Made by a program: the position numbers and the translations under genes. Below the pieces are notes generated by a model. It was not told the origin of the DNA and searched no databases. It worked only from the letters and a program-made list of their open reading frames with translations. A stretch of 64,000 bases of DNA from a virus: the IMG/VR virus record IMGVR_UViG_3300002092_001548, positions 64,001-128,000 of that record. The stretch is one strand, 5' to 3'. Below, in pieces: positions 25,946-57,602 of the stretch (its first letter is position 1; each line of letters starts with the position of its first letter).

Positions 25946-26593
25946 ATGGAAAATATTATAACAGAATTTTATAATGAGAATATTGGTCAAGGGTTTAATG
26001 ATTATGAAAAATCGCATCTTGCGCGCTTTAATTTTCTTGTTGAAGATTTGAAACTAAATGAAATAAAGAATTCATCCATTTTAGATGTGGGTTGCGGTTA
26101 TGGCCCAATTTTCCAAAGGTTAGATAAAGAAAATAATAACGAGCTTGTTGGTATAGATGGGGCTGGACTGAGTAATGATTTTGAATATCATATTGCAGAT
26201 TTACAGTACGATTTTTTCTCCGAAAAATTTCGGGAGAAGAAATTTGATTATATTTTCTCTTTTGAGACTTTTGAGCATTTAAGCAATCCATATCATTGCC
26301 TTTTAGAGATTAAAAAATTGATGCATAAAGATTCAATATTTTATTTATCAATTCCACACCAAGATATTACGCATAATACGATATATCCATCCCTACTTTA
26401 TCCGGTTGATAACTTTAAAACATTCCTAGATCAGTGCGCAATGGAAGTCGTAGCACAGACGGTGCATGACAAGGCTTTTAAACAGAACGTGTTTACACTA
26501 AAAAGTTTAGATTGGAATAACTCAAAAATGCTTTGGTATAAGCAAGAGGATAAATTTAGAAATATACCCCCACATATTGCTATTAATTTGTAG
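25946..26593 (+). CDS. Class I SAM methyltransferase (Methyltransf_23-like)
   Basis: ILDVGCGYG, FDYIFSFETFEHL, LSIP. Confidence 0.85.
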   Translation: MENIITEFYNENIGQGFNDYEKSHLARFNFLVEDLKLNEIKNSSILDVGCGYGPIFQRLDKENNNELVGIDGAGLSNDFEYHIADLQYDFFSEKFREKKFDYIFSFETFEHLSNPYHCLLEIKKLMHKDSIFYLSIPHQDITHNTIYPSLLYPVDNFKTFLDQCAMEVVAQTVHDKAFKQNVFTLKSLDWNNSKMLWYKQEDKFRNIPPHIAINL

Positions 26594-27399
26594 TGAAAAA
26601 GATCATTGGTTTCAATCAGGGTCAATACGGAGACCTCTGCATGAATGTAGTGGCATGTCGTGCGGTAAAAAGAGACCATCCAAATTCAGATCTTTATCTT
26701 GGGATAAATAAACGATATCAGTCGTTAAAAGAAATTTTTCTCTATAATAATTTAATAGATAATATTCATATTTGGGATCAATACAATAATTGGCCATCGG
26801 ATATAGATAAAGAGTATTTACGGGAGCAAAAATTTGATATGGCATTTAACCCGATGCCGAAACATTCAAGTGAGGACTGGTATTTATATCGACATCAAAC
26901 GGAAGAAGTTTGCCTCATGCATGGCATTATACCCCCAAATGACTTAACAGTAACATTTAATAAATATTTCGAAACAAAACGATATAATAAATATGTCGCT
27001 GTTAATCTTTTTGCGGAAACCAGATCTTCAGATAAAACACCAGATTTACAACAATCTATAAATATTGTTAATTTAATTAAATCACTTGGATATATTCCAG
27101 TTCAAATAGGGTTACCGGAACAGCCGCAAATATGCGACAATCAATTTTTTGGATCATTTTTCGAAACCATTAAATTTGTTTTATCTTGTAATTTTCTCGT
27201 TACCGTAGATTCGGCAATTGCTTGGATTGCCTCTGGGTATTCATTTCCAGTAGTTGGAATCTACGCTTACTCATACTATACTGGAGCTACGACTTCAAAA
27301 AACTGGCAGCCTATCAATAAAAATGCCCTTTATATCGAAAAATATAGAATATCAGATATTACAACATATGATATAGAACAGGCTATACAACTTATATGA
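26593..27399 (+). CDS. GT9-like glycosyltransferase
   Basis: GQYGDL, VQIG, LVTVDSAIAWIASGYSFPVVGIY. Confidence 0.75.
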   Translation: MKKIIGFNQGQYGDLCMNVVACRAVKRDHPNSDLYLGINKRYQSLKEIFLYNNLIDNIHIWDQYNNWPSDIDKEYLREQKFDMAFNPMPKHSSEDWYLYRHQTEEVCLMHGIIPPNDLTVTFNKYFETKRYNKYVAVNLFAETRSSDKTPDLQQSINIVNLIKSLGYIPVQIGLPEQPQICDNQFFGSFFETIKFVLSCNFLVTVDSAIAWIASGYSFPVVGIYAYSYYTGATTSKNWQPINKNALYIEKYRISDITTYDIEQAIQLI

Positions 27400-42959: not shown

Positions 42960-44207
42960 GTGAATAATAGGCTTCCATACGAAGAATACCAAGCAATCAT
43001 GAACTCCCTAGTGGAGCATCATGCAGTATTCTATCAATTTTGGCGTTTAGTAAAACCTCAATACTCTGAAGAAGTTGATACTGCTTGTGTTTTCTTTAAT
43101 AAAGAAGGTAAATGTATTGATTTTTTAATTAACCAAGCTTATTGGAACTCAGTAGATGACATAAGAAAAAAATTCATTATTTGCCATGAATGTATGCATG
43201 TTCTAAATTCGCATGGCAAACGAATTGGAACAAAATTCTCACAATACGGAGACCAAGCAAACATTGCTATGGATATAGTTGTCAATGAAGGGCTCACAAA
43301 ATTCTTTGGGTTCAATCGCGCCAAAATAGATCCAGATGATGAGTATATATGGTTAGATAAAATTTTTAAAGACGACCCATCCGTTGTTGACGATAATAGT
43401 TTTGAGTATTATTTAAATAAATTGATAGAAAATAATATTGGCCCGGCGCCGTCAAAATCACTAATCAATCAACATTCTGGACTTGGAATTCCCGACGAAC
43501 TAGTTCAAGAAATCATTAACCAACTCTCGGATGAGGAAGGAGAGGTACTAAAAAATATTGCCGAACGTTCCGAACAAGGAAAAAAGAAAGATAATGGCCA
43601 AATAGCAGGAAAATCAGGTGGGCAATTAACTAAAAAACTAGATAAAAAACCCGCAGTATTTAAAAGTAAATGGGAAACCATTATTAAAAAATTCGAAAAA
43701 AGCTTTGGTAAAGAAGAAACCAATGAGGCGCATTGGATAAACAAAGATAGGAGGATGTATAATTTAAATTTTGATATGTTCTTACCATCTGATATTGAAC
43801 ACGAGGTAAGAAAAACAGAAAAAGAAAAAATTAAAACTTACTTTTTTATGGATTCAAGTGGATCTTGTCAAGACCTAGCGCAAAGATTTTTTGATGCAGC
43901 TAAAAGTATTAACCCTAATAAATTCGATGTTGAATACTATTGTTTTGATACGGCAGTTTATAAAGTTGACATAGCTAAAAGAAAACTGTTTGGATTTGGC
44001 GGAACTAGCTTTAAATCAGTAAGTGATTTTATTTACAAAAAAAACAAAGTCAAACCGCATGTTTGGATTTTAACGGATGGTCATGGTGATTATCCCGATA
44101 TTCCAGAAAATGAAGAAAAAAAATGGAGCTGGTTTTTAATTCAAGGTGGGAGCAAAAAATTTGTTCCACAAAATAGTAAAATTTATAATTTAGAAAATTT
44201 CGAGTAA
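42960..44207 (+). CDS. DUF2201-like metallopeptidase fused to a VWA domain (MoxR partner)
   Basis: DTACV, HECMH (HExxH), NIAMDIVVN; MIDAS DSSGS, GGTSF, ILTDG. Confidence 0.85.
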   Translation: MNNRLPYEEYQAIMNSLVEHHAVFYQFWRLVKPQYSEEVDTACVFFNKEGKCIDFLINQAYWNSVDDIRKKFIICHECMHVLNSHGKRIGTKFSQYGDQANIAMDIVVNEGLTKFFGFNRAKIDPDDEYIWLDKIFKDDPSVVDDNSFEYYLNKLIENNIGPAPSKSLINQHSGLGIPDELVQEIINQLSDEEGEVLKNIAERSEQGKKKDNGQIAGKSGGQLTKKLDKKPAVFKSKWETIIKKFEKSFGKEETNEAHWINKDRRMYNLNFDMFLPSDIEHEVRKTEKEKIKTYFFMDSSGSCQDLAQRFFDAAKSINPNKFDVEYYCFDTAVYKVDIAKRKLFGFGGTSFKSVSDFIYKKNKVKPHVWILTDGHGDYPDIPENEEKKWSWFLIQGGSKKFVPQNSKIYNLENFE

Positions 44208-45052
44208 CCAGATAAATGTGGATAATATTTATTCCATTCATCTTTTTTAAATTCCCAAATAAACTTTCTTCTCGCATCTATTGCTTGGTATAGACAGTTA
44301 AAACTCCCAATTTTTCTTATTATAAATTTTTTATTCTTATAGTTCTCTATGCCGATACCTTGTTTTTCTTGCTCCGTATAAAAGCAAACTGCAGACTTGA
44401 ATTTATCAAATTTTCTAGAAAGACCAATATTATCCAAGTCTCTATCTTTATAAATAAAGTGTAAAAATTTATATACATTTTTCTTTCCCACTAAATAGAA
44501 GTGACTATTAGCATGCGTATTATCTTTATGAGTTTTTGAATGGAATTCAATATTTAATTTTCCACATAATTCCTCGCAAAATTTCCAGTCCTGATTATAA
44601 TTTGATGTTATATCCACACAATGCGCTCCAGTTTTGGGGTTTGCGCTCAAATACCCATCTCCGTCAAAATAACCTCTCCACCAATAATGCTTTAGATCAT
44701 TAGGAATAATATTTAAAATTTTAACTGGAGAAACTTGTGACTTTATCAAAAAATCATTGTCACATAAAAATTGATATAAGTATTTATTAGAATATCTAAG
44801 ACAAGCATAGGTTCTATTAGTAATTTTATTAGTAGAACAGTAATACTTCCAATCACCAGTTTTACATAGAACGGGAAAAATCTCCTCCGCATCACATATT
44901 TGTATATTTACTTTTATATTATAGTCATATTTTCTTCTATTTTTTTGCACATATCCATCGGCCCATAAAAAACCCAAAACATAAGCCGAAATTGGAGACA
45001 TATTGTCAGTAAAATTTAAAGCAGCTTCTTTTTTTCTTGCTTGTATCGTCAT
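44183..45052 (-). mobile_element. Free-standing double-motif LAGLIDADG homing endonuclease
   Basis: AYVLGFLWADG and WWRGYFDGDG motifs, LSRK; antisense between the VWA and MoxR genes. Confidence 0.85.
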
Positions 45053-45082: not shown

Positions 45083-46123
45083 ATGATTACCTCTCAAGAA
45101 TTAGAAATTAAGCTTCGAACTTATTTAAAATCTAATAAAAATGTCTTATTAGAAGGAAAACATGGCGTTGGCAAAACAGCACTAATTCAAAAAATTTTTA
45201 ACGAAGAATTTGGAGAAAACAACTGGATATATTTTTCATCTAGTACTCTAGATCCATGGACGGACTTAATTGGCGTCCCAAAAGAATCTAAAATAAATAA
45301 TGAGCCATGCCTAGATTTTATTTTACCAAAACAAATGATAAATACAAATTTAAAAGCCATGTTTTTTGACGAATACAATCGTAGCCATAAAAAAGTTCGT
45401 AACGCCACAATGGAATTAATTCAATTTAAAAGCATTAATGGACGTAAGTTTCCAAATTTAAAAGTAATATGGGCGGCAGTAAACCCAGCCGATGATGAGG
45501 AAGATACGTATGACGTAGACAACCTTGATCCAGCGCAGCTAGACAGGTTCCAAATCTATATAAAAGTGCCATACTCTCCAGACTACGAATACTTTAAATC
45601 AAAATTTGGAGTTAAACATGCAACTTCCGCTATTGAATGGTGGAATGGGCTTCCCAAAGAAGCTAAAAAATTAGTATCGCCCCGCCGTTTAGATTATGCC
45701 CTAGAGCTTTACAAAGAAGGCGGCGACCTATTTGATGTCCTGCCAGATAAAACCAACCCTACAAAGTTACTGGTAACTCTACAAGTGGGAAGTCTAGAGG
45801 CAAAAGTTAAGGAATTATTTGAACAAAAAAATGGAAAAGAAACTAAAAAATTCTTTTTATCTGAAAATAACTTCCAAGGCGCGCTACCAATTATAAAGAA
45901 AAATAAAGAATACGTTCAGTTCTTTTTGCCCCTATTAAATAATGAAAGACTATCCTCAGTCTTTTTTACCGAAACAAAACTTCAAGAATTTATTCTACAA
46001 AACTCCCAATTATTTAAAGAACCCCTAGAAGAGATCTCTAAATTAAAAGCCATTGATCCTCACCTTTTAGGTAATATCAATAATGCACTCAAAAAAATTG
46101 GAACTGTTACTTACTTTCCTTAA
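45083..46123 (+). CDS. MoxR-like AAA+ ATPase
   Basis: LLEGKHGVGKT, DLIGVP, FFDEYNR, WAAVNP, LDPAQLDRF, SPRR. Confidence 0.88.
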   Translation: MITSQELEIKLRTYLKSNKNVLLEGKHGVGKTALIQKIFNEEFGENNWIYFSSSTLDPWTDLIGVPKESKINNEPCLDFILPKQMINTNLKAMFFDEYNRSHKKVRNATMELIQFKSINGRKFPNLKVIWAAVNPADDEEDTYDVDNLDPAQLDRFQIYIKVPYSPDYEYFKSKFGVKHATSAIEWWNGLPKEAKKLVSPRRLDYALELYKEGGDLFDVLPDKTNPTKLLVTLQVGSLEAKVKELFEQKNGKETKKFFLSENNFQGALPIIKKNKEYVQFFLPLLNNERLSSVFFTETKLQEFILQNSQLFKEPLEEISKLKAIDPHLLGNINNALKKIGTVTYFP

Positions 46124-49844: not shown

Positions 49845-50155
49845 TGATTTATATTGTGTTGGGCCTTTAAATAATCTTTGATAACATCACCTTTTACTTC
49901 TTTCTTGTAATAATTAAATTTCTTTCCAAAGCTAGTGGAGTCAATAAAGTCATGAAAGGTAAAATTATATTTATTATTTGACTTTCTAATCGTATCTTTA
50001 TGAAAGTATGCAGTATAAGTAAAAAAGCCCAAAGCAATTATTACCCCAATAATAACAGTTTTAAATGCTCCGGCAATAATTCTTTCTACAAGAAAAATAG
50101 ACAAGATAGAGAGGAATACTACAAGCGCAATTTCTAGTGGGTTATTAAAGTTCAT
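49841..50155 (-). CDS. Small membrane protein
   Basis: Two hydrophobic helices and a basic tail. Confidence 0.55.
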   Translation of the reverse strand: MNFNNPLEIALVVFLSILSIFLVERIIAGAFKTVIIGVIIALGFFTYTAYFHKDTIRKSNNKYNFTFHDFIDSTSFGKKFNYYKKEVKGDVIKDYLKAQHNINQ

Positions 50156-50526
50156 CTACCTAATTGTAGTAACTTCCCCTCCATTATTTCTAATCTTTCT
50201 AAAGTTGTACTATTCAAATGCGCCCACTCCCTTATGAGACAATTGGTATAGAGATCTTTTTTAATTTGAACTGGATCAAAACCGAACTGATCTCCAGTTA
50301 AGTCTATATAGTAATTATCAATCTTATTGAACCAATGTTTAATACCATTAACATACGCACTAACTAAATGCCCACCATATCTTTTATAAATAATCGCCGC
50401 CACAATAGCGCAATGTCCCGTACTAGGAATTTCTTCGTTAAAGAAATAAACAGTTTCGGCCGCAAAGCATTTGTCGAGATCTAGACGAAGATCCCTTAAC
50501 TCTTTTTCTATTATTAATTTTGGCAT
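50152..50526 (-). CDS. YunG-like protein (transglutaminase-like Cys/His/Asp)
   Basis: GHCAIVA, YGG, HWFNKI, IDLTGDQF. Confidence 0.65.
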   Translation of the reverse strand: MPKLIIEKELRDLRLDLDKCFAAETVYFFNEEIPSTGHCAIVAAIIYKRYGGHLVSAYVNGIKHWFNKIDNYYIDLTGDQFGFDPVQIKKDLYTNCLIREWAHLNSTTLERLEIMEGKLLQLGR

Positions 50527-50544
50527 GGGTCATATATATTACAT

Positions 50545-50658
50545 TTAATTATTAATAATATCAGAAAATACCCTTGGAATAATAACATTATCAGGAAGGT
50601 CTTTAAAAAGTGGTGCGATATGTTTTGGAGAATGTCCCGCCAAACCGCAACCAATTTT
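50545..50658 (-). pseudogene. C-terminal remnant of a macrodomain-like (A1S_2505-type) phage protein
   Basis: KIGCGLAGHSPKHIAPLFKDLPDNVIIPRVF with no own start; begins at the stop codon of the upstream phosphoesterase. Confidence 0.55.
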
Positions 50659-51499
50659 AAAGAAATGGTAGATCTTTATAGATACTATCATAAGCACCAA
50701 ATTTTTCAATAAGTTTCTTTCTTCTTTTTTCTTGGGCAACGAGATAGAAATTATCCATACCAGTATCAATAGCAGAGCAATCACCAGTTTCATCAATCTC
50801 AAGAACCTGACATAGACCACAATCAATGTTGGCATTAATACCACCATTCTCATTCCAAATATTAGTTTTACCCATTGTAGGAGTATGACCATAGACTTGT
50901 TTTAATCCTTTGGATACATGACCTTCTTGGAAGTCATCACACCAAAGGATACCACCAACTTTTTGCATACCACCACGACAACGACCTACCGCACCAATGG
51001 TTTCATTCCATTTACGATTAAGATAATCATCAGTAGCTTTTGCAAGTTTATCAAGAATAACATCATTGCTCATACCTTTAATGGGATGTTCAAACCAATG
51101 AGGATGAATACCAGCATGAGTAAACCAAACACCATTACCATAATGAGCAAACTTGATCTTATCCCAGTGCGATTCAGTCATTACACGATTAATGGCATCA
51201 TCTTTCTTCATATCATAACCAGAGCAGTTATAGATATTCTGAAGACTACCAAGCGAATCCTTGATATAATTTAGATAAGAATAATTGATATCATGATTAC
51301 CCATCAAATGGATACGATTAGGCTTATCAAGCGATTCCTTGAGCCAAGTAGCAGTTTGAATTGCATCTTGCGCAGTATCGCCAAAATCATCAAAGTAATC
51401 ACCAGTAAACACGACAAGATGAGTCTTATCGTAAAGGCTCGCGATTTGTTCCGCCTCAACCCAATGATTGTGTACGTCTCCTATGGCTATGATGTTCAT
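50657..51499 (-). CDS. Calcineurin-like metallophosphoesterase
   Basis: IGDVHN, TGDYFD, LMGNHD, FTHAG, VYGHT. Confidence 0.9.
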   Translation of the reverse strand: MNIIAIGDVHNHWVEAEQIASLYDKTHLVVFTGDYFDDFGDTAQDAIQTATWLKESLDKPNRIHLMGNHDINYSYLNYIKDSLGSLQNIYNCSGYDMKKDDAINRVMTESHWDKIKFAHYGNGVWFTHAGIHPHWFEHPIKGMSNDVILDKLAKATDDYLNRKWNETIGAVGRCRGGMQKVGGILWCDDFQEGHVSKGLKQVYGHTPTMGKTNIWNENGGINANIDCGLCQVLEIDETGDCSAIDTGMDNFYLVAQEKRRKKLIEKFGAYDSIYKDLPFL

Positions 51500-51547: not shown

Positions 51548-51576
51548 TTGACTCACCCTTCAAAAAACTGTAAATT
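51548..51576 (+). promoter_or_regulatory. Sigma-70-type promoter (leaderless), divergent from 51506-51534
   Basis: TTGACT-17 nt-TAAATT, ATG 6 nt downstream. Confidence 0.7.
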
Positions 51577-51582
51577 ATATAG

Positions 51583-52167
51583 ATGGATCATTTGAAAAAA
51601 GAAAACGTTCTGGTTTTAAACCGAAACTGGCAGGCAATTCATGTAAAGAACCCGGCCGAAGCAATATCAATGATGTATTCCGATTCCGCAACTGGACTTG
51701 ATGTTCGCGGGGAAGATAATATGGTTCCATTAAAATGGAAAGATTGGCTTAATTTAGACATCGGTGAAAATGATGATTCTATTCAGACAGTTAGTGGAAG
51801 AATTAAAATTCCAAAAGTTATTGTTCTTTGCACTTACGATAAAGTACCGAGAAAACGCCCCAAGTTTTCAACCAGAGCGCTTTGGGAACGTGATAATGGG
51901 ACTTGTCAATACACCGGGCGCCAACTTGTAATTGGCGAGGCAAATGTTGACCATGTAATTCCAAGATCCAGAGGCGGAAGGACTGATTGGACAAATTGCG
52001 TTATCACTCATAAAGAAGTTAATTCAAAAAAAGCAGACCGAACCCCACAAGAGGCCGGACTAAAACTAATTCGTCAACCTCTTCCCCCAAGAGATTTGCC
52101 ATCTACTTTCTATATCCGAAATAAACACAATGTAGAAGAGTGGAATATATTCTTGACTTATAATTAA
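51583..52167 (+). CDS. HNH endonuclease (McrA-like)
   Basis: VLVLNRNWQ, RDNGTCQYTG, NVDHVIPRSRGG..W.N, N..KADRTP.EAGL. Confidence 0.9.
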   Translation: MDHLKKENVLVLNRNWQAIHVKNPAEAISMMYSDSATGLDVRGEDNMVPLKWKDWLNLDIGENDDSIQTVSGRIKIPKVIVLCTYDKVPRKRPKFSTRALWERDNGTCQYTGRQLVIGEANVDHVIPRSRGGRTDWTNCVITHKEVNSKKADRTPQEAGLKLIRQPLPPRDLPSTFYIRNKHNVEEWNIFLTYN

Positions 52168-52181
52168 AAGATTCTTATTAT
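52153..52181 (+). promoter_or_regulatory. Sigma-70-type promoter (leaderless)
   Basis: TTGACT-17 nt-TATTAT, ATG 6 nt downstream. Confidence 0.7.
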
Positions 52182-52187
52182 TCTTTA

Positions 52188-52928
52188 ATGCAAGTTAAAA
52201 TGTTCAAACGGGATCCATCAGATAAAATTCTTGACCGTTATTTTGGAAAGCGTAACCTTCTTCCGTATGCCAGCGTTCAGTCTGTTGATGCATATTTTGC
52301 ACTACCAAAAAATGAGCGCGAACGGTTTGGGCTATATCTTCGTCCACTAGCGCTTCCCGTTACTGGCTTTTGGTCATCTAATCCAGATATTAAAGGATGG
52401 GCTTTATGGGAAAAAGAAATTAAAAAACAATATCCAATTCAAGCCTATATTCGTGAATTTCTTTTATCTTACGATAATCCAGTTTACGCATTTCTTTCAC
52501 TAAAGAAAACACAATTAAATGACCTTAAGTGGAAAATTAACCGTTTAATTAAACCACTTCACCCACGAATTCATAAGGCATATCGCCGCCACGAAGTAAA
52601 AGACGTTTCATCTGCGCTCATAGATGTAAACTTTGCTCTTATCTTAGATTTTTGTCACGAGGAGGTTACAAATAGCGTTGTATGTTGGACGCACGATAAG
52701 AATCATAGGGATTTTCATAATCAATTAAAGAAAGCTGTTAAATATATCGAAGTAGAGCGCCCGGCGCTACAGGTTCGGGCCGATAAGGAATTAACAAGGG
52801 GAACCTTTTCAAAAAAAAGTGGTGTTAATAAATATGCAAAGTATTACCAACTAGAACAAAAAATTGAACAGCGCGATACCGCAACAGTTCTTTGGGCAAT
52901 TAACAATCGCGGTTTCTTCTGGACATGA
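52188..52928 (+). CDS. Hypothetical phage protein
   Basis: 246 aa, helical, ends RGFFWT. Confidence 0.6.
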   Translation: MQVKMFKRDPSDKILDRYFGKRNLLPYASVQSVDAYFALPKNERERFGLYLRPLALPVTGFWSSNPDIKGWALWEKEIKKQYPIQAYIREFLLSYDNPVYAFLSLKKTQLNDLKWKINRLIKPLHPRIHKAYRRHEVKDVSSALIDVNFALILDFCHEEVTNSVVCWTHDKNHRDFHNQLKKAVKYIEVERPALQVRADKELTRGTFSKKSGVNKYAKYYQLEQKIEQRDTATVLWAINNRGFFWT

Positions 52929-53929
52929 GTTCACCTAAAATTCTTATCGTAGAGTCTACGAGTAAAACAAAACCACTCTGCCAAAATTTCAGCGATACGA
53001 GTATTGTTCACTGCCGAAACTCAATCATTTTAAAGAACTATTTGGGTGCAGACCTTCTTGATGGAGAGTATGCACTAGCATCAATTTTAAAGAATAAATA
53101 TGACGTAATCATATGTTGCTATGCCTCGCCATATATGCCGCATATTCCATATAGGAAGGTTATAGATCAAAACCCCGGCGCCCGACTTGTTTGGATGGTT
53201 AACGATCACGACCTAGAGGATAATCAACTCTTACGCTACGCCATCACACAAGGTCGCAGCTATGATATGATCTGCAATAATCCAAGAAATGGATACAGGC
53301 ATTGGATCTTGGGTAAGAATATTGAAGGCAAAAAACTAAATGACTTTATTATTGATTGGCACACAACTAATTTAAATTCATTAATTTTTAGAGATACTAG
53401 ATCGATACAGAATCCAGAAGGTAAGAATGGAACGGTTTACTATGGAACTTATAGAAAGCATCGCGCCGATGATTTTAAACTATATTTAAATCGCGGTATT
53501 ACCGTATCTAGTTCTATTAAACACTGGAAGAAGTTTGAGGCATTAGGTTGTACGGCTAATTTTATTCGCCCCCTTGGGTGGGAGAAAGATAAGGAGAACC
53601 TTAGAGATTTTAAATATTCAATTTATTTAGAAGATAAGCATACTCACGATAACTTTGCTTTTATGGCAAATCGTTACTATGAAGCCCTAATGTGCGATGT
53701 TGTTCCCTTATTTGCCCCCAATACGAGCAAAACACTAAAGGGAAGCAATTACGGTTCTGATATCGCGACCAGTCAGATTCTTCCAGAAGGCCTATATGGT
53801 GATGCACTATTAGAATATACTTCCAAGCTAGACCACTCTTATTATATTAAGAATCAACGTTTGCAGTTTGATAATATTCTTGGAGAAAGACAAATGGTAC
53901 TACAGGGAATTAAAGATTTTTTATTTTGA
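52925..53929 (+). CDS. T4 beta-glucosyltransferase-like (GT-B) putative DNA glycosyltransferase
   Basis: KYDVIICCYAS, LVWMVNDHDL, VYYGTYRKHR and IYLEDKHTHDNF..NRYYEALMCDVV parallel recalled T4 BGT segments. Confidence 0.6.
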   Translation: MSSPKILIVESTSKTKPLCQNFSDTSIVHCRNSIILKNYLGADLLDGEYALASILKNKYDVIICCYASPYMPHIPYRKVIDQNPGARLVWMVNDHDLEDNQLLRYAITQGRSYDMICNNPRNGYRHWILGKNIEGKKLNDFIIDWHTTNLNSLIFRDTRSIQNPEGKNGTVYYGTYRKHRADDFKLYLNRGITVSSSIKHWKKFEALGCTANFIRPLGWEKDKENLRDFKYSIYLEDKHTHDNFAFMANRYYEALMCDVVPLFAPNTSKTLKGSNYGSDIATSQILPEGLYGDALLEYTSKLDHSYYIKNQRLQFDNILGERQMVLQGIKDFLF

Positions 53930-54670
53930 AATAATCTTGCAACTATTATTTAGAGAAGTGCTAACTACTGTTAGCGGAAAAGTAAGCCCCGCGCCACTAT
54001 TATATAAGAATCTAATTTCAGTAGTTGTTAATGCTCTATTCCAGACACCAACCTCATCAATTTTAGCGCCATTTGAATTTGCTACATATGCCCCGCCTGG
54101 TACAGCTAATAGTGCATAGTTTCCGCTATAACCAGTATTACTATCTGTACCATTAGCAACCAAATTACCATTATAATATATACTTATTGTAGACCCTTTT
54201 CTTATAAGTGTTGCCATGCACCAATTACTAGTAGATATCCCACCAGAAGGATAATAGGATAAATTTACAATAACATCTGGAACACCATAATAAATACTAT
54301 CATGAGTAACATTGAAATTTATTCCATTTCTATCGGGGCCACAAAATTGTTGAACCGTTCCATCAGTATTAGGAATAGTCCAATAATTGATTGTGAAATC
54401 TCTAGAAAAATCAAGCGAATTAGTTGTTTGTAACCATCCCGAACCATTTCCCAAAACACAACTATTAATGAGTCCAGTTGCCGTTGGTACAGTATTATGT
54501 AATATTAAAGTATTAGCATTACTTGTACTATCTAAACGATTACCACTTGCTTCATCTAATTTCCAATAAGCAATTAAATTACTAACTAAATTAAGAATAT
54601 AATAATTTAATTTAATAGAGCAAGTATTATATTGCCCTAAAATAACACTCGATATTCTTACTAACGACAT
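53921..54670 (-). CDS. LamG/concanavalin-A-like virion protein
   Basis: LIAYWKLDE, DFTINYW, IYYNG, IDEVGVWNRALT. Confidence 0.85.
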   Translation of the reverse strand: MSLVRISSVILGQYNTCSIKLNYYILNLVSNLIAYWKLDEASGNRLDSTSNANTLILHNTVPTATGLINSCVLGNGSGWLQTTNSLDFSRDFTINYWTIPNTDGTVQQFCGPDRNGINFNVTHDSIYYGVPDVIVNLSYYPSGGISTSNWCMATLIRKGSTISIYYNGNLVANGTDSNTGYSGNYALLAVPGGAYVANSNGAKIDEVGVWNRALTTTEIRFLYNSGAGLTFPLTVVSTSLNNSCKIISK

Positions 54671-54672
54671 TT

Positions 54673-54909
54673 TTAAAGGAATGTATATTGACCACTTGCT
54701 AATAGGTCAGAAGCCCTATTTTGCGCACTTTCATTTGTCCAATTTGCGGCCTCAGTATATTGTTGTTCGCCACTCCATAGTATTAATGGCTTAGGAAGTC
54801 CGGCGACTAAACCCATAATTCTATAAGCTTTAAATTCATCTATTACATTTATTAGATTAATAGAATTAAGACTAACCTGTTGTGATGGTAATGTAACTTG
54901 TATGCTCAT
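54673..54909 (-). CDS. Small tail-associated protein
   Basis: 78 aa; LILWSGEQQY..WT, within the fibre cassette. Confidence 0.5.
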   Translation of the reverse strand: MSIQVTLPSQQVSLNSINLINVIDEFKAYRIMGLVAGLPKPLILWSGEQQYTEAANWTNESAQNRASDLLASGQYTFL

Positions 54910-54911
54910 AA

Positions 54912-56639
54912 TTAGTATTGGTAAATATTGAAAGTTCCGTCGGTATTTATATTAATTGACCAAGCAACCCCGTCACCATCATATAAAATTAAACCATCCG
55001 GCCCGGCTGATAAATTATTAGCCGTATTTGCAGTATTTGCATAAGTAGCGATACTAGCAGAAACGGCTGCGACATTACTAATATTAGCCCCATCTCCGTG
55101 TATTCCTCCAGAAATATAAACACCATTAGTAAAACCTAAAGTAAGCGATCCGTAACCTTGACCTCCAGTAATACTACCATCAGAAATAATCATTTCATTT
55201 CCATAACCTGAAATTAATGACCCACCATTACCACTTAGGGCTAGGGTTCCATTAATATTAACATCCGTGTTAAAAGTTTTTGTACCACTTATTGTTTGAG
55301 CGCCAGTTGTGTAAACCGTATTAGGAACGGAAGATATAAAACCGCTCGGATTTGATTTCGGATAGAGCGATGCCAATGAAGACGTTAATCCTAAAATTTT
55401 ACTCTGTTGAATTTGTGCGTTAGCATCAACATCTGAATCGAAAATACCAGTGGCCGGGCTCTGATAAACACCATTTATCACCTTAACAACACCATTCCCC
55501 GCAACGGCGGGAATTGTTGTATGACAGTGCGATGGGCGGTAAGAATCATAATAGATAGTAATAGTTCTTGCGGTGTTCGTATTTTTAACCGCAAACATTT
55601 GAACGTAAAGACGTTCGTTCGTAGAAATACCAGTTTGAGGTACTGTTACGTTCAATAAATATTGAGCTACTGCTGTTGCATCATAAAGATAAACATAATC
55701 AGAAGCGCCCAAGAGACGATAGCTTCCAGCACCACTAGGGTTATATATATTAACAACTACTTTAAGTGCTGTTTGCGTTGCATTGGTACTATTTGTACTG
55801 GCCCAAATGTTAAAATCCCAAAGTCCGGCTGGAATATTACTAATATTAGGATCACCACTGGCAGTTAAGAAACTAGATACTAATATGTCCGATCCTTTCG
55901 GCGAGAGGTCGGGAGTTGTATATTGCCCACTTCCCACTGAATAAGTTTTACCCCAAAGAGATACCGGAGTTAAACCTGTATTTAAACCTCCAGACGGTGC
56001 AAGTCCAGACTGGTTTAAAAAATCAAAATAATATGTTATTCCACCACCACCATTCCCACCCGCCGCAACAGCGCCAGGCGCCCAAGCCGAACCATTCCAT
56101 TGTAGCGTTTGACCAAGTCCGGGTGCCGATGGCTGAATTGGGAGACCCTGAATACTTGTTACAGTTGGAGAGAGTAAGGATCCACTTACGTCATAACCAG
56201 TAATATAACTAAACTGAGAAACGCCCGTAATATAATTAGATGGATTATTGAGAGGATAATAACTTCCAGTTAAAGTTCCGCTTAAAGAAGAAATAGAAGA
56301 GGCAAGAGTCGAGCCAGTTAATCCTAAATTCGTAATTGTTGCATACATTAGTGCATCATAACCGCTTAAGCCAGTAAGCTGTATGTAGGTAGCATAGGAA
56401 GAAAGATTTACGCCCGTAATATAACCGCTCGGATTAGATGCGGCGTAAAATACGCCAGTTTGCGCTGTAGTTACAAACGAACCAGTTTGTGATTTCAAGG
56501 CATATCCAGTCAAAGACCCACTCACCCCACTAGCTAAACTATACCCAAGATTCCACTGCGTGGAATTACCACTAGGATCATAAATAACCCCAGACCCACT
56601 CAGGGTTCCATATACTGTTGTATTTCCTAGTAAAGCCAT
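54912..56639 (-). CDS. Tail-fibre-like SG/TG-rich protein
   Basis: YYPLNNPS repeats, GQTLQWNGSAWAP, VYTTGAQTISGTKTF. Confidence 0.7.
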   Translation of the reverse strand: MALLGNTTVYGTLSGSGVIYDPSGNSTQWNLGYSLASGVSGSLTGYALKSQTGSFVTTAQTGVFYAASNPSGYITGVNLSSYATYIQLTGLSGYDALMYATITNLGLTGSTLASSISSLSGTLTGSYYPLNNPSNYITGVSQFSYITGYDVSGSLLSPTVTSIQGLPIQPSAPGLGQTLQWNGSAWAPGAVAAGGNGGGGITYYFDFLNQSGLAPSGGLNTGLTPVSLWGKTYSVGSGQYTTPDLSPKGSDILVSSFLTASGDPNISNIPAGLWDFNIWASTNSTNATQTALKVVVNIYNPSGAGSYRLLGASDYVYLYDATAVAQYLLNVTVPQTGISTNERLYVQMFAVKNTNTARTITIYYDSYRPSHCHTTIPAVAGNGVVKVINGVYQSPATGIFDSDVDANAQIQQSKILGLTSSLASLYPKSNPSGFISSVPNTVYTTGAQTISGTKTFNTDVNINGTLALSGNGGSLISGYGNEMIISDGSITGGQGYGSLTLGFTNGVYISGGIHGDGANISNVAAVSASIATYANTANTANNLSAGPDGLILYDGDGVAWSININTDGTFNIYQY

Positions 56640-56693
56640 TTCTTATATTACACCTTTTTATTTTTATTATTTATTATTTAGATACCAAACCCA

Positions 56694-57602
56694 CTAACTA
56701 ATACCAGTTACCTCATCAAATTGTCCAGATACTAGAAGACGACCATCACTAGTTTCTCTTTTGGCTATACTGCCGTCCTGAAGAGTAACCTCATCAAGCC
56801 CAGCAGTAAAAATAGTAGATATAGTTACTTTATTGGCGCTAGGATTTCCTCCAGTAAAGGGGAGTAAAGAAGAACTCGTCGCGCCGTTAACATTTGTAAC
56901 AGTAAAATTATTTGAACTACTATCTTTTAAATAATTTGAATTATTAGCCATGTTCAATAATAGTTTAGTATTTGTTATTGCTGTTAATCCGGTAGTAGGT
57001 ACGGTGAGAGTTGTTAGAGTTGGATTATAAACTGCTGTACCATTAATAAATCTAAAGTTAGATATATAACCCCCAAATGGGGCACTACTACTCGTTGAAG
57101 CACCAATATTCATTACTCCAGCCTGTGCAGCAATATTAACTGTAATATGAATTGTACTCGCTACTTTTACCCCATCTATGAATACTGCCCAGCTCGTTCC
57201 TTGGCGTACAATAGCATAATGATGCCAAGCATTTAATGCTGGTAGCGCACCTAAACTAGGTATCCACGCCCAAGTATTAACACCATTAGCAATTGCAAAA
57301 TTATGACCGCCCAACCCTACCGTAACATACATTAATTTAGTTTGCCAAGTAACAGCGCTATTATCATAACACCAAGGGCTATCATATGCCCCCCGGGTTG
57401 TTTGATATTGCCACCACTCAATAGTAAAATCATTAACTCCCAAAGTAAATGCTGCGTTAGCCGGAACTGTTAGATATTGTGTTGACGCCGTTACAAATTT
57501 GATACTTCCATTCGTTGCACCAACAGCATACGTTACCTCATCAAAAGTACCCGCACTGCGATAAGTACCATTACTAAGTAGTCGTGCCGCTGTTATTGCC
57601 AT
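56694..57602 (-). CDS. LamG-like virion protein
   Basis: DFTIEWW, WHHYAIVR, FIDG, GYISNFR..GTAVY, TAITNTKLLL. Confidence 0.85.
   Translation of the reverse strand: MAITAARLLSNGTYRSAGTFDEVTYAVGATNGSIKFVTASTQYLTVPANAAFTLGVNDFTIEWWQYQTTRGAYDSPWCYDNSAVTWQTKLMYVTVGLGGHNFAIANGVNTWAWIPSLGALPALNAWHHYAIVRQGTSWAVFIDGVKVASTIHITVNIAAQAGVMNIGASTSSSAPFGGYISNFRFINGTAVYNPTLTTLTVPTTGLTAITNTKLLLNMANNSNYLKDSSSNNFTVTNVNGATSSSLLPFTGGNPSANKVTISTIFTAGLDEVTLQDGSIAKRETSDGRLLVSGQFDEVTGIS

Follow-up and report, generated by a model that had tools for sequence, protein, structure and literature searches.

Does a phage gene related to the DNA beta-glucosyltransferase (BGT) of T4 glycosylate DNA in a genome that encodes no recognised route to a hydroxylated base? 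This question is raised by a 334-aa open reading frame (ORF), hereafter GT for glycosyltransferase, in a 64,000-nucleotide stretch of viral DNA. This stretch, called the window, covers positions 64001-128000 of the 138,208-bp linear IMG/VR virus record IMGVR_UViG_3300002092_001548 (G000), estimated to be 89% complete. An initial annotation, made from the letters alone, had likened GT to T4 BGT and proposed that the phage DNA could be hypermodified. Profile comparisons and a predicted structure indicate that GT shares ancestry with T4 BGT. The reading that we favour, with about even confidence, is that GT is an active inverting GT-B enzyme that would transfer sugar from a host nucleoside-diphosphate (NDP) sugar to DNA, on an acceptor other than the known phage-made hydroxylated pyrimidines and probably at sparse sites.

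As a single sequence, GT matched no Pfam family at E≤1, no PHROGs family and, with phmmer, no PDB entry; none of the Pfam GT-B donor-domain models (Glycos_transf_1 and relatives; generic GT4/GT1) was matched either. A metagenome protein collection contained 157 unannotated homologues, 50 of which were aligned (alignment A1) and used as a profile. Searched against 177,635 PDB sequences, A1 gave T4 BGT as its sole glycosyltransferase match (E 0.0038, C-terminal domain). An exhaustive hidden Markov model (HMM) search extended the family to 655 clusters at 50% identity (E≤1e-3). With hhalign, an 89-sequence alignment of this wider family (A2) aligned with the T4 b-gt product over 251 columns, covering both domains and BGT residues 35-342 (Prob 95.1, E 2.9e-8). 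The narrower A1 reached only Prob 58 against BGT, which counts against homology, and showed no similarity to the T4 alpha-glucosyltransferase (AGT; E 0.37). The four segment pairs that had been aligned by eye with T4 BGT were all recovered in these objective alignments. KYDVIICCYAS/DYDRLIVVNSS and LVWMVNDHDL/IYYLFTDIRL are present in the A2 alignment, while VYYGTYRKHR/IYGGSFRSGQR and LEDKHTHDNF..RYYEALMCD/IGDKNYNDNF..RVWETMASD are found in the A1-profile match to the PDB and in both hhalign runs. Because T4 BGT is both the only glycosyltransferase match of A1 in the PDB and the top structural match, this pairing exceeds chance. The two proteins are also of similar length, as had been noted (334 and 351 aa), with about 13% identity. 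Judged from these alignments, the homology appears real but remote.

The AlphaFold2 model of GT (predicted local distance difference test 93.1, predicted template modelling score 0.91) has a GT-B two-Rossmann fold whose nearest solved structure is BGT. In Foldseek, four T4 BGT entries rank first (E 4e-7 to 4e-6), and non-DNA GT-B families do not match better. BGT and AGT, the two DNA glucosyltransferases of T-even phages, are the closest solved structures and are separated by a gap of 3-5 Z units from all small-molecule, lipid and protein GT-B enzymes.

In the N-terminal domain, D94 aligns to BGT D100, and all 89 members of A2 have D or E at this position. D100 is named as the catalytic residue of BGT in the legend of supplemental Fig. 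S1 of a survey of phage glycosyltransferases, as given in its available text (bioRxiv 10.1101/2023.12.21.572611), and the title of PDB entry 1nzd (D100A) supports this. Six residues of GT, R177, R180, E236, D237, R250 and E253, are invariant in the same 89 sequences. In the C-terminal domain, R177, R180, R250 and E253 align to BGT R191, R195, R269 and E272, which we take to bind uridine diphosphate (UDP). These alignments support the presence in GT of the BGT donor-site residues and of D94 as the predicted counterpart of D100. On the other hand, the clade to which GT belongs has its own invariant N-domain residues (H29, N32, Y66, S68, Y70, N118, N149, N151) and an insert at 121-131, which suggests an acceptor pocket unlike that of BGT. 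BGT binds duplex DNA and flips the target base into its cleft; on this point the comparison covered charge. The isoelectric point of GT (8.63, net charge +5) is close to that of BGT (9.05, +6); this is weak evidence, since AGT, a retaining enzyme, is acidic.

As to its surroundings, GT had been placed in an operon behind a host-type promoter and away from the glycan genes of the window. The local features are as follows.

51548-51576, plus strand: sigma-70-like match TTGACT-N17-TAAATT, 7 nt before the HNH start codon (consensus match only)
51583-52167, plus strand: HNH endonuclease, 194 aa (PF13395 E 5e-9, PF01844 E 3e-8, phrog_16726 E 1.6e-22)
52153-52181, plus strand: sigma-70-like match TTGACT-N17-TATTAT, 7 nt before the start codon of the 246-aa ORF (consensus match only)
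52188-52928, plus strand: 246-aa ORF, function unassigned; its stop and the GT start share 4 nt (ATGA)
52925-53929, plus strand: GT ORF, 334 aa, ATG start; predicted GT-B glycosyltransferase of the T4 BGT lineage
53921-57602, strand opposite GT: LamG-type and BppL_N-type tail-fibre genes; the LamG-type gene is convergent and overlaps the GT 3' end

The HNH gene opens a same-strand run that continues with the 246-aa ORF and GT, and the latter two are probably co-transcribed. The run itself and the promoter-like matches before two of its start codons agree with the proposed operon; the promoter part is weakened by the site count, since the region contains 12 such matches against 10.2 ± 2.4 in shuffled sequences, which is no excess. 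A recognisable fold was looked for in the 246-aa ORF and none was found. The HNH gene is kept upstream of the pair in five loci (70-74% identity). The 246-aa ORF is not a constant partner of GT, as it accompanies GT in just 5 of the 14 loci that encode it. The distance from the glycan genes was borne out: their cluster lies at about 12-42 kb (Gmd, DegT, GT17, GT34, GT9 and methyltransferases, with two Gmd-type enzymes), and GT is found outside it, amid nucleotide and DNA-metabolism genes. Directly upstream of the run, on the opposite strand, are a YunG-family protein (50152-50526, minus strand) and a calcineurin-like phosphoesterase (50657-51499, minus strand) with a weak link to RNA ligase/polynucleotide kinase-type PHROGs. 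Further upstream, a LAGLIDADG homing-endonuclease gene (44183-45052, minus strand) sits between a DUF2201-like/vWA-partner gene (42999-44207) and a MoxR-type AAA_3 ATPase gene (45083-46123), on the strand opposite these two neighbours.

Close relatives of GT are encoded by 186 IMG/VR contigs, of which 80 loci were counted; just 3 of the 80 share the neighbourhood seen in the window. At 64% identity, 62-kb phages have ERF or RecT, a DUF2800 nuclease and a RepO-like initiator (phrog_678) on one side of the gene and DnaB or DnaC on the other. A deaminase-like gene is found upstream of GT in the largest group (56-58% identity). Contigs of this group, as at L016:12948-18204, bear cargo that is unusual for phages downstream of GT, namely CsgF-/CsgG-like curli secretion genes, a FecR-domain protein and a CHASE2-adenylate/guanylate cyclase. 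Screening of 50,697 phage records for this part of the family yielded just three cultured carriers, Cronobacter phages S13 and LPCS28 and Citrobacter phage Ci1. In S13, the homologue lies between uvsY and uvsW. Comparison of all genes of G000, of S13 and of G005, a complete 62-kb relative (L085-L088), showed that GT is the only gene common to all three. A candidate partner, an 85-87-aa protein with the motif ADGF...EYFEFN..GAY.GENTP, is encoded in G000 outside the window (G000:15172-15435, minus strand) and in G005 (26490-26741, minus strand); it was rejected, as it directly follows GT in four 64%-identity loci, is 5 kb off in L013 and 100 kb off here. The gene was found in nine sequencing runs, all freshwater or lake metagenomes, with no RNA run among those listed; all nine are represented by contigs, a form of data that does not reveal base modification.

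The strongest link of the family to DNA comes from a divergent clade. Its alignment (A7) comprises 60 members, and a scan gave 311 further viral contigs, of which 80 loci (L123-L202) were counted. In 72 of these 80, GT is immediately preceded by a co-oriented gene of about 185 aa whose stop overlaps the GT start. Of four representatives of this protein, three match ParB_N (PF02195; E 2e-10 to 1.5e-5), two of them above cut-off. Downstream of the pair come a helix-turn-helix (small-terminase-like) protein and then the large terminase, as exemplified by L148:1494-2051 and the GT that follows. This ParB_N-GT two-gene module is widespread in small uncultured phages. ParB-like proteins have been shown experimentally to activate phage DNA thymine dioxygenases, according to the available text of PMC13229309.

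A divergent representative led to Escherichia coli phages IME392 and EP_H11. The IME392 protein AXY86080.1 is a clear GT homologue (hhalign Prob 99.3, E 9e-21), flanked by a 5-hydroxymethyldeoxyuridine (5-hmdU) DNA kinase (PF18723, E 3e-35) and a divergent ThyA variant (E 5e-12). An AAA_28 kinase, a YfbR-like HD nucleotidase, a PIG-L deacetylase and a methyltransferase complete the cluster, which adjoins topoisomerase, helicase and PolA genes. These contents suggest a putative thymidine hypermodification cluster whose product would be a glycosylated, possibly de-N-acetylated, 5-hmdU derivative. In the public record (vB_EcoM_IME392, MH719082; L122:2078-12911), the cluster is annotated only as hypothetical proteins. 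IME392 is listed, in the available text of PMC12686479, with phages whose polymerase groups with those of the thymidine-hypermodified YerA41, Carin-5 and SP-15. A related-loci search with the single protein P0261 returned nothing.

These clades were placed in a maximum-likelihood tree of 45 of 164 sequences, after dropping rows shorter than 250 aa or at least 75% identical to a kept row. The clade of GT is monophyletic (99/100) and branches among the ParB-linked rows, with T4 BGT and IME392 as outgroups; S13 groups with a ParB-less row inside the ParB-linked radiation.

Taken together, these data are compatible with the following mechanism. The C-terminal domain would bind the donor, a nucleotide-diphosphate sugar that is most likely a UDP-hexose common in the host. 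D94 would deprotonate an acceptor group lodged in the cleft between the domains, and transfer of the sugar would proceed with inversion. As to the acceptor, the family context suggests a base of double-stranded phage DNA that is modified post-replicatively; DNA is proposed because of the ParB_N coupling upstream of terminase in the sister clade, the 5-hmdU cluster of IME392 and the location of the gene in replication and recombination modules elsewhere. As to the sugar, the phage-made deoxysugars had been proposed as possible donors, which found no support: none of 30 non-structural ORFs of G005 matches a sugar-nucleotide family, so that for the family it is more economical to assume an ordinary host NDP-sugar as donor.

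Several observations weigh against the DNA-acceptor reading. The first concern the homology itself: the Pfam model PF09198 of the N-terminal domain, which recovers T4 b-gt at E 1e-99, finds nothing in G000 at E≤10, and an hmmsearch of the PDB with A2 stays empty at E≤10, even though hhalign with the same alignment is significant. The second group concerns the substrate. G000 encodes ribonucleotide reductase, RecA, a DnaE-type Pol III alpha subunit, DnaB and primase; the ThyX, dCMP deaminase, MazG-like (PRA-PH) and dNMP kinase (here P-mevalo_kinase-like) genes that had been reported in the window are all found there. The reported lack of a dCMP hydroxymethylase and of TET/JBP also held when extended to the whole 138-kb record: ThyA and hydroxymethylases (PF00303), Tet_JBP (PF12851), C5 DNA methyltransferase (C5-MTase; PF00145), Radical_SAM, 2OG-FeII_Oxy_3, TGT and the 5-hydroxymethyluracil (hmU) DNA kinase HMUDK (PF18723) all had no match. 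The absence of PF00303 is meaningful because its model detects T4 gp42 (E 3.9e-17), whereas the absence of PF12851 is weaker, its model being above cut-off in no control. ParB_N had no match in G000 either.

The relatives give the same picture. PF00303 matches in 0 of 10 IMG/VR relatives of the clade, which include G005 (terminal repeats, 100% complete) and G006 (98%), and in 0 of 20 whole records of the ParB-linked clade, five of which are at least 90% complete. Apart from one C5-MTase, the tested records of the relatives contain no match to TET/JBP, C5-MTase, Radical_SAM, 2OG-FeII_Oxy_3, TGT or HMUDK; in the 20 ParB-linked records, C5-MTase is found in one and PF12851, for which the search had no positive control, in none. 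The non-structural ORFs of G005 match only MazG, intein, small terminase, sigma region 4 and PATR. When T4 gp42, S13 Td and, from IME392, the ThyA-like protein and the hmU kinase served as tblastn queries, no match appeared in 1.2 Mb plus 0.77 Mb of loci. Furthermore, ParB_N matches in none of 12 records of the clade of GT, and tblastn with 58 ParB-like partners was negative in its loci, so that the strongest DNA link is borrowed from relatives. The node that places the clade within the ParB-linked radiation is weak (81/63), and both outgroup branches are long. No partner family is common to the lineages either: by hhalign the neighbour families of three lineages are unrelated, the sole likeness being between two small downstream ORF families. 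Finally, T4-like S13 has a single ThyA homologue (L083:1501-2349), whose QRS-N-D...N residues fit thymidylate synthase by the criteria that separate it from dCMP hydroxymethylase or 5-hydroxy-dCMP synthase (PMC13326640, section 28, as available). S13 carries no gp42-like hydroxymethylase and no PF09198 BGT, and its cytosine is predicted to be probably unmodified despite the orphan GT. The available literature text on S13 and LPCS28 holds nothing on DNA chemistry.

Palindromes add to these points. Compared with a Markov expectation, six-base palindromes have a median observed/expected ratio of 0.82 in G000 (p 4e-15), and CTCGAG, GCCGGC and GTCGAC are absent from its 138 kb. The corresponding medians are 0.54 in G005 (62 kb), where 24 of 49 testable palindromes fall below half of expectation, 0.85 in S13 and 0.91 in T4 (p 2e-3). 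This suggests that the carriers still meet Type II restriction, although T4 itself shows mild avoidance. Such strong avoidance argues against a blanket protective modification. Hypermodification of the phage DNA, as proposed, was not demonstrated: complete phages of 33-62 kb carry this gene too while every known hydroxylated-base route is missing from them, and six-base palindromes are still avoided. With no route to 5-hydroxymethylcytosine (hmC), hmU or 5-hydroxycytosine (5hoC) encoded and palindromes avoided, any modification in this clade would probably be sparse or sequence-specific, or made on an acceptor with no need for a phage-made precursor; wholesale base replacement of the T4 kind is probably not its function.

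The same data leave room for an acceptor other than DNA, which we regard as possible. In this case, the BGT scaffold would have been kept while the acceptor became a protein of host or phage, a hydroxyl-bearing RNA or tRNA base, or a small molecule derived from a nucleotide, for instance an immune signal, and the enzyme would serve host takeover or counter-defence. The acceptor is not fixed by the shared fold, the gene occurs in at least four unrelated phage backbones with no base-modifying partner, seven records that are at least 90% complete have no hydroxylated-base pathway, and the persistence of palindrome avoidance fits as well. In the available text of the survey cited above, about 65% of the contigs with phage GT-A or GT-B enzymes had no neighbouring base-modification enzyme and were judged less obviously DNA-related (bioRxiv 10.1101/2023.12.21.572611). 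This explanation is countered by the structural comparison, in which the two nearest structures are the only two DNA glucosyltransferase families, with the Z-score gap to other GT-Bs described above, and by the typical DNA-modification contexts of the ParB_N coupling before terminase and the IME392 cluster. In addition, no signal peptide, membrane or protein-substrate context was seen.

A bolder form of the DNA reading, which we hold only tentatively and consider doubtful, is that the family, whether or not a ParB_N partner is present, glycosylates DNA with no hydroxymethyl- or hydroxy-pyrimidine precursor at all. Its target would then be a canonical base, or a site chosen by a ParB-like adaptor near the packaging genes.

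A classical DNA glycosyltransferase acting on a hydroxymethylated pyrimidine is unlikely. The base-making enzyme would have to lie in the missing 11% or so of the genome, be too divergent for the searches, or be supplied by the host. The record is indeed linear and incomplete, many ORFs are without a family assignment, no positive control was available for the TET search, and IME392 provides an example from the wider family in which a ThyA variant can act alongside such an enzyme. However, PF00303 matches in none of 31 family-bearing IMG/VR records, seven of them at 90-100% completeness, with a model that detects T4 gp42, and the complete G005 genome still has no base-making enzyme by this search. 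ThyX and dCMP deaminase in the window indicate an ordinary dTMP supply, and palindrome avoidance argues against full replacement.

It is very improbable that GT is one of the phage's enzymes for virion glycosylation, with the tail-fibre or LamG proteins encoded next to it as targets: the convergent fibre genes and the large glycan toolkit of the window would fit, but only 3 of the 80 related loci have this neighbourhood, other lineages place the gene in replication modules or before terminase with no glycan genes among the tested ORFs, and GT itself lies on the strand opposite the fibre genes, behind early-type promoter matches, and is unlike the GT9, GT17 and GT34 enzymes of the window (no Pfam GT match).

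To our knowledge, every characterised phage DNA glycosyltransferase acts on a phage-installed hydroxyl (hmC, hmU or 5hoC) made through a ThyA homologue or TET. The present family appears to keep the BGT catalytic apparatus, is abundant (655 clusters; 186 plus 311 IMG/VR contigs) and occurs in DNA-handling contexts, yet it consistently lacks the hydroxyl installer, even in complete 33-62 kb genomes. If the acceptor is DNA as we favour, it would be an undescribed one, relevant to restriction evasion, sequencing artefacts and DNA-labelling enzymes. If glycosylation proceeds from no precursor, it would represent a new chemistry and a new logic, sparse and site-directed instead of blanket replacement, spread across hundreds of uncultured freshwater and other phage lineages. 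A non-DNA target would mean that the BGT scaffold was recruited to another acceptor. The three cultured carriers, S13, LPCS28 and Ci1, and the two-gene ParB-GT module make the acceptor question directly testable.

Among known systems, we compare GT first with T4 BGT, which we take to be CAZy family GT63. The two share the GT-B fold, the D100-type acidic residue and the Arg/Glu set (b-gt, NP_049658; PF09198; PDB 1bgt, 1qkj, 1j39, 1nzd). T4 BGT acts on 5-hydroxymethylcytosine derived from the phage dCMP hydroxymethylase; GT, in contrast, is only about 13% identical, has no PF09198 match, and lies in a genome with no dCMP hydroxymethylase or dCTPase-type pathway by the PF00303 search, which is negative in the G000 record and 30 related IMG/VR records. 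T4 AGT (a-gt; PF11440 as named in the available text of PMC13216743; PDB 1xv5, 1y6f) is a structural neighbour with no sequence similarity to GT.

The phage GT-B enzymes associated with 5mYOX/TET or ThyS (GT53, GT66, GT94) fall in the same Foldseek range as GT and have an Asp aligned to D100; phage GT-B DNA glycosyltransferases whose activity has been demonstrated by experiment match T4 BGT at E 1e-5 to 1e-7 (bioRxiv 10.1101/2023.12.21.572611, available text). They adjoin a C5-MTase and TET, or ThyS, which the genome of GT lacks; this comparison is by published description. The same text notes ParB-like, terminase and helicase neighbours of phage glycosyltransferases in passing, and as far as it goes, BGT-like GT-Bs of uncultured phages, many of them with no partners, are already in print there. 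In the main texts of the open-access literature, we found no paper characterising the present GT family or its acceptor. Two classes of modification cluster also differ from the present locus. A 5-hmdU cluster of the Lee et al. type contains a ThyA-type dUMP hydroxymethylase and a 5-hmdU DNA kinase, whereas PF00303 and PF18723 are absent here and tblastn is negative; for a TET/5mYOX-dependent cytosine cluster, there is no match to PF00145 or to PF12851, the latter being above cut-off in no control.

Within the family, the ParB_N-coupled members (L123-L202) belong to the same HMM family (A2, A7; invariant N, R, R, S, E, D, R, E) and likewise lack ThyA and TET. They are translationally coupled to ParB_N and precede terminase genes, whereas the clade of GT has no ParB_N in 12 records and lies in other modules. 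The IME392 member sits on a very long branch, has not kept the HxRN motif of the N-domain, and is accompanied by an hmU DNA kinase, a ThyA variant, an HD nucleotidase and a PIG-L deacetylase, all missing from the genome of GT. Nevertheless, it carries the acidic residue and the R..R, ED and NRYYE motifs as they occur in GT.

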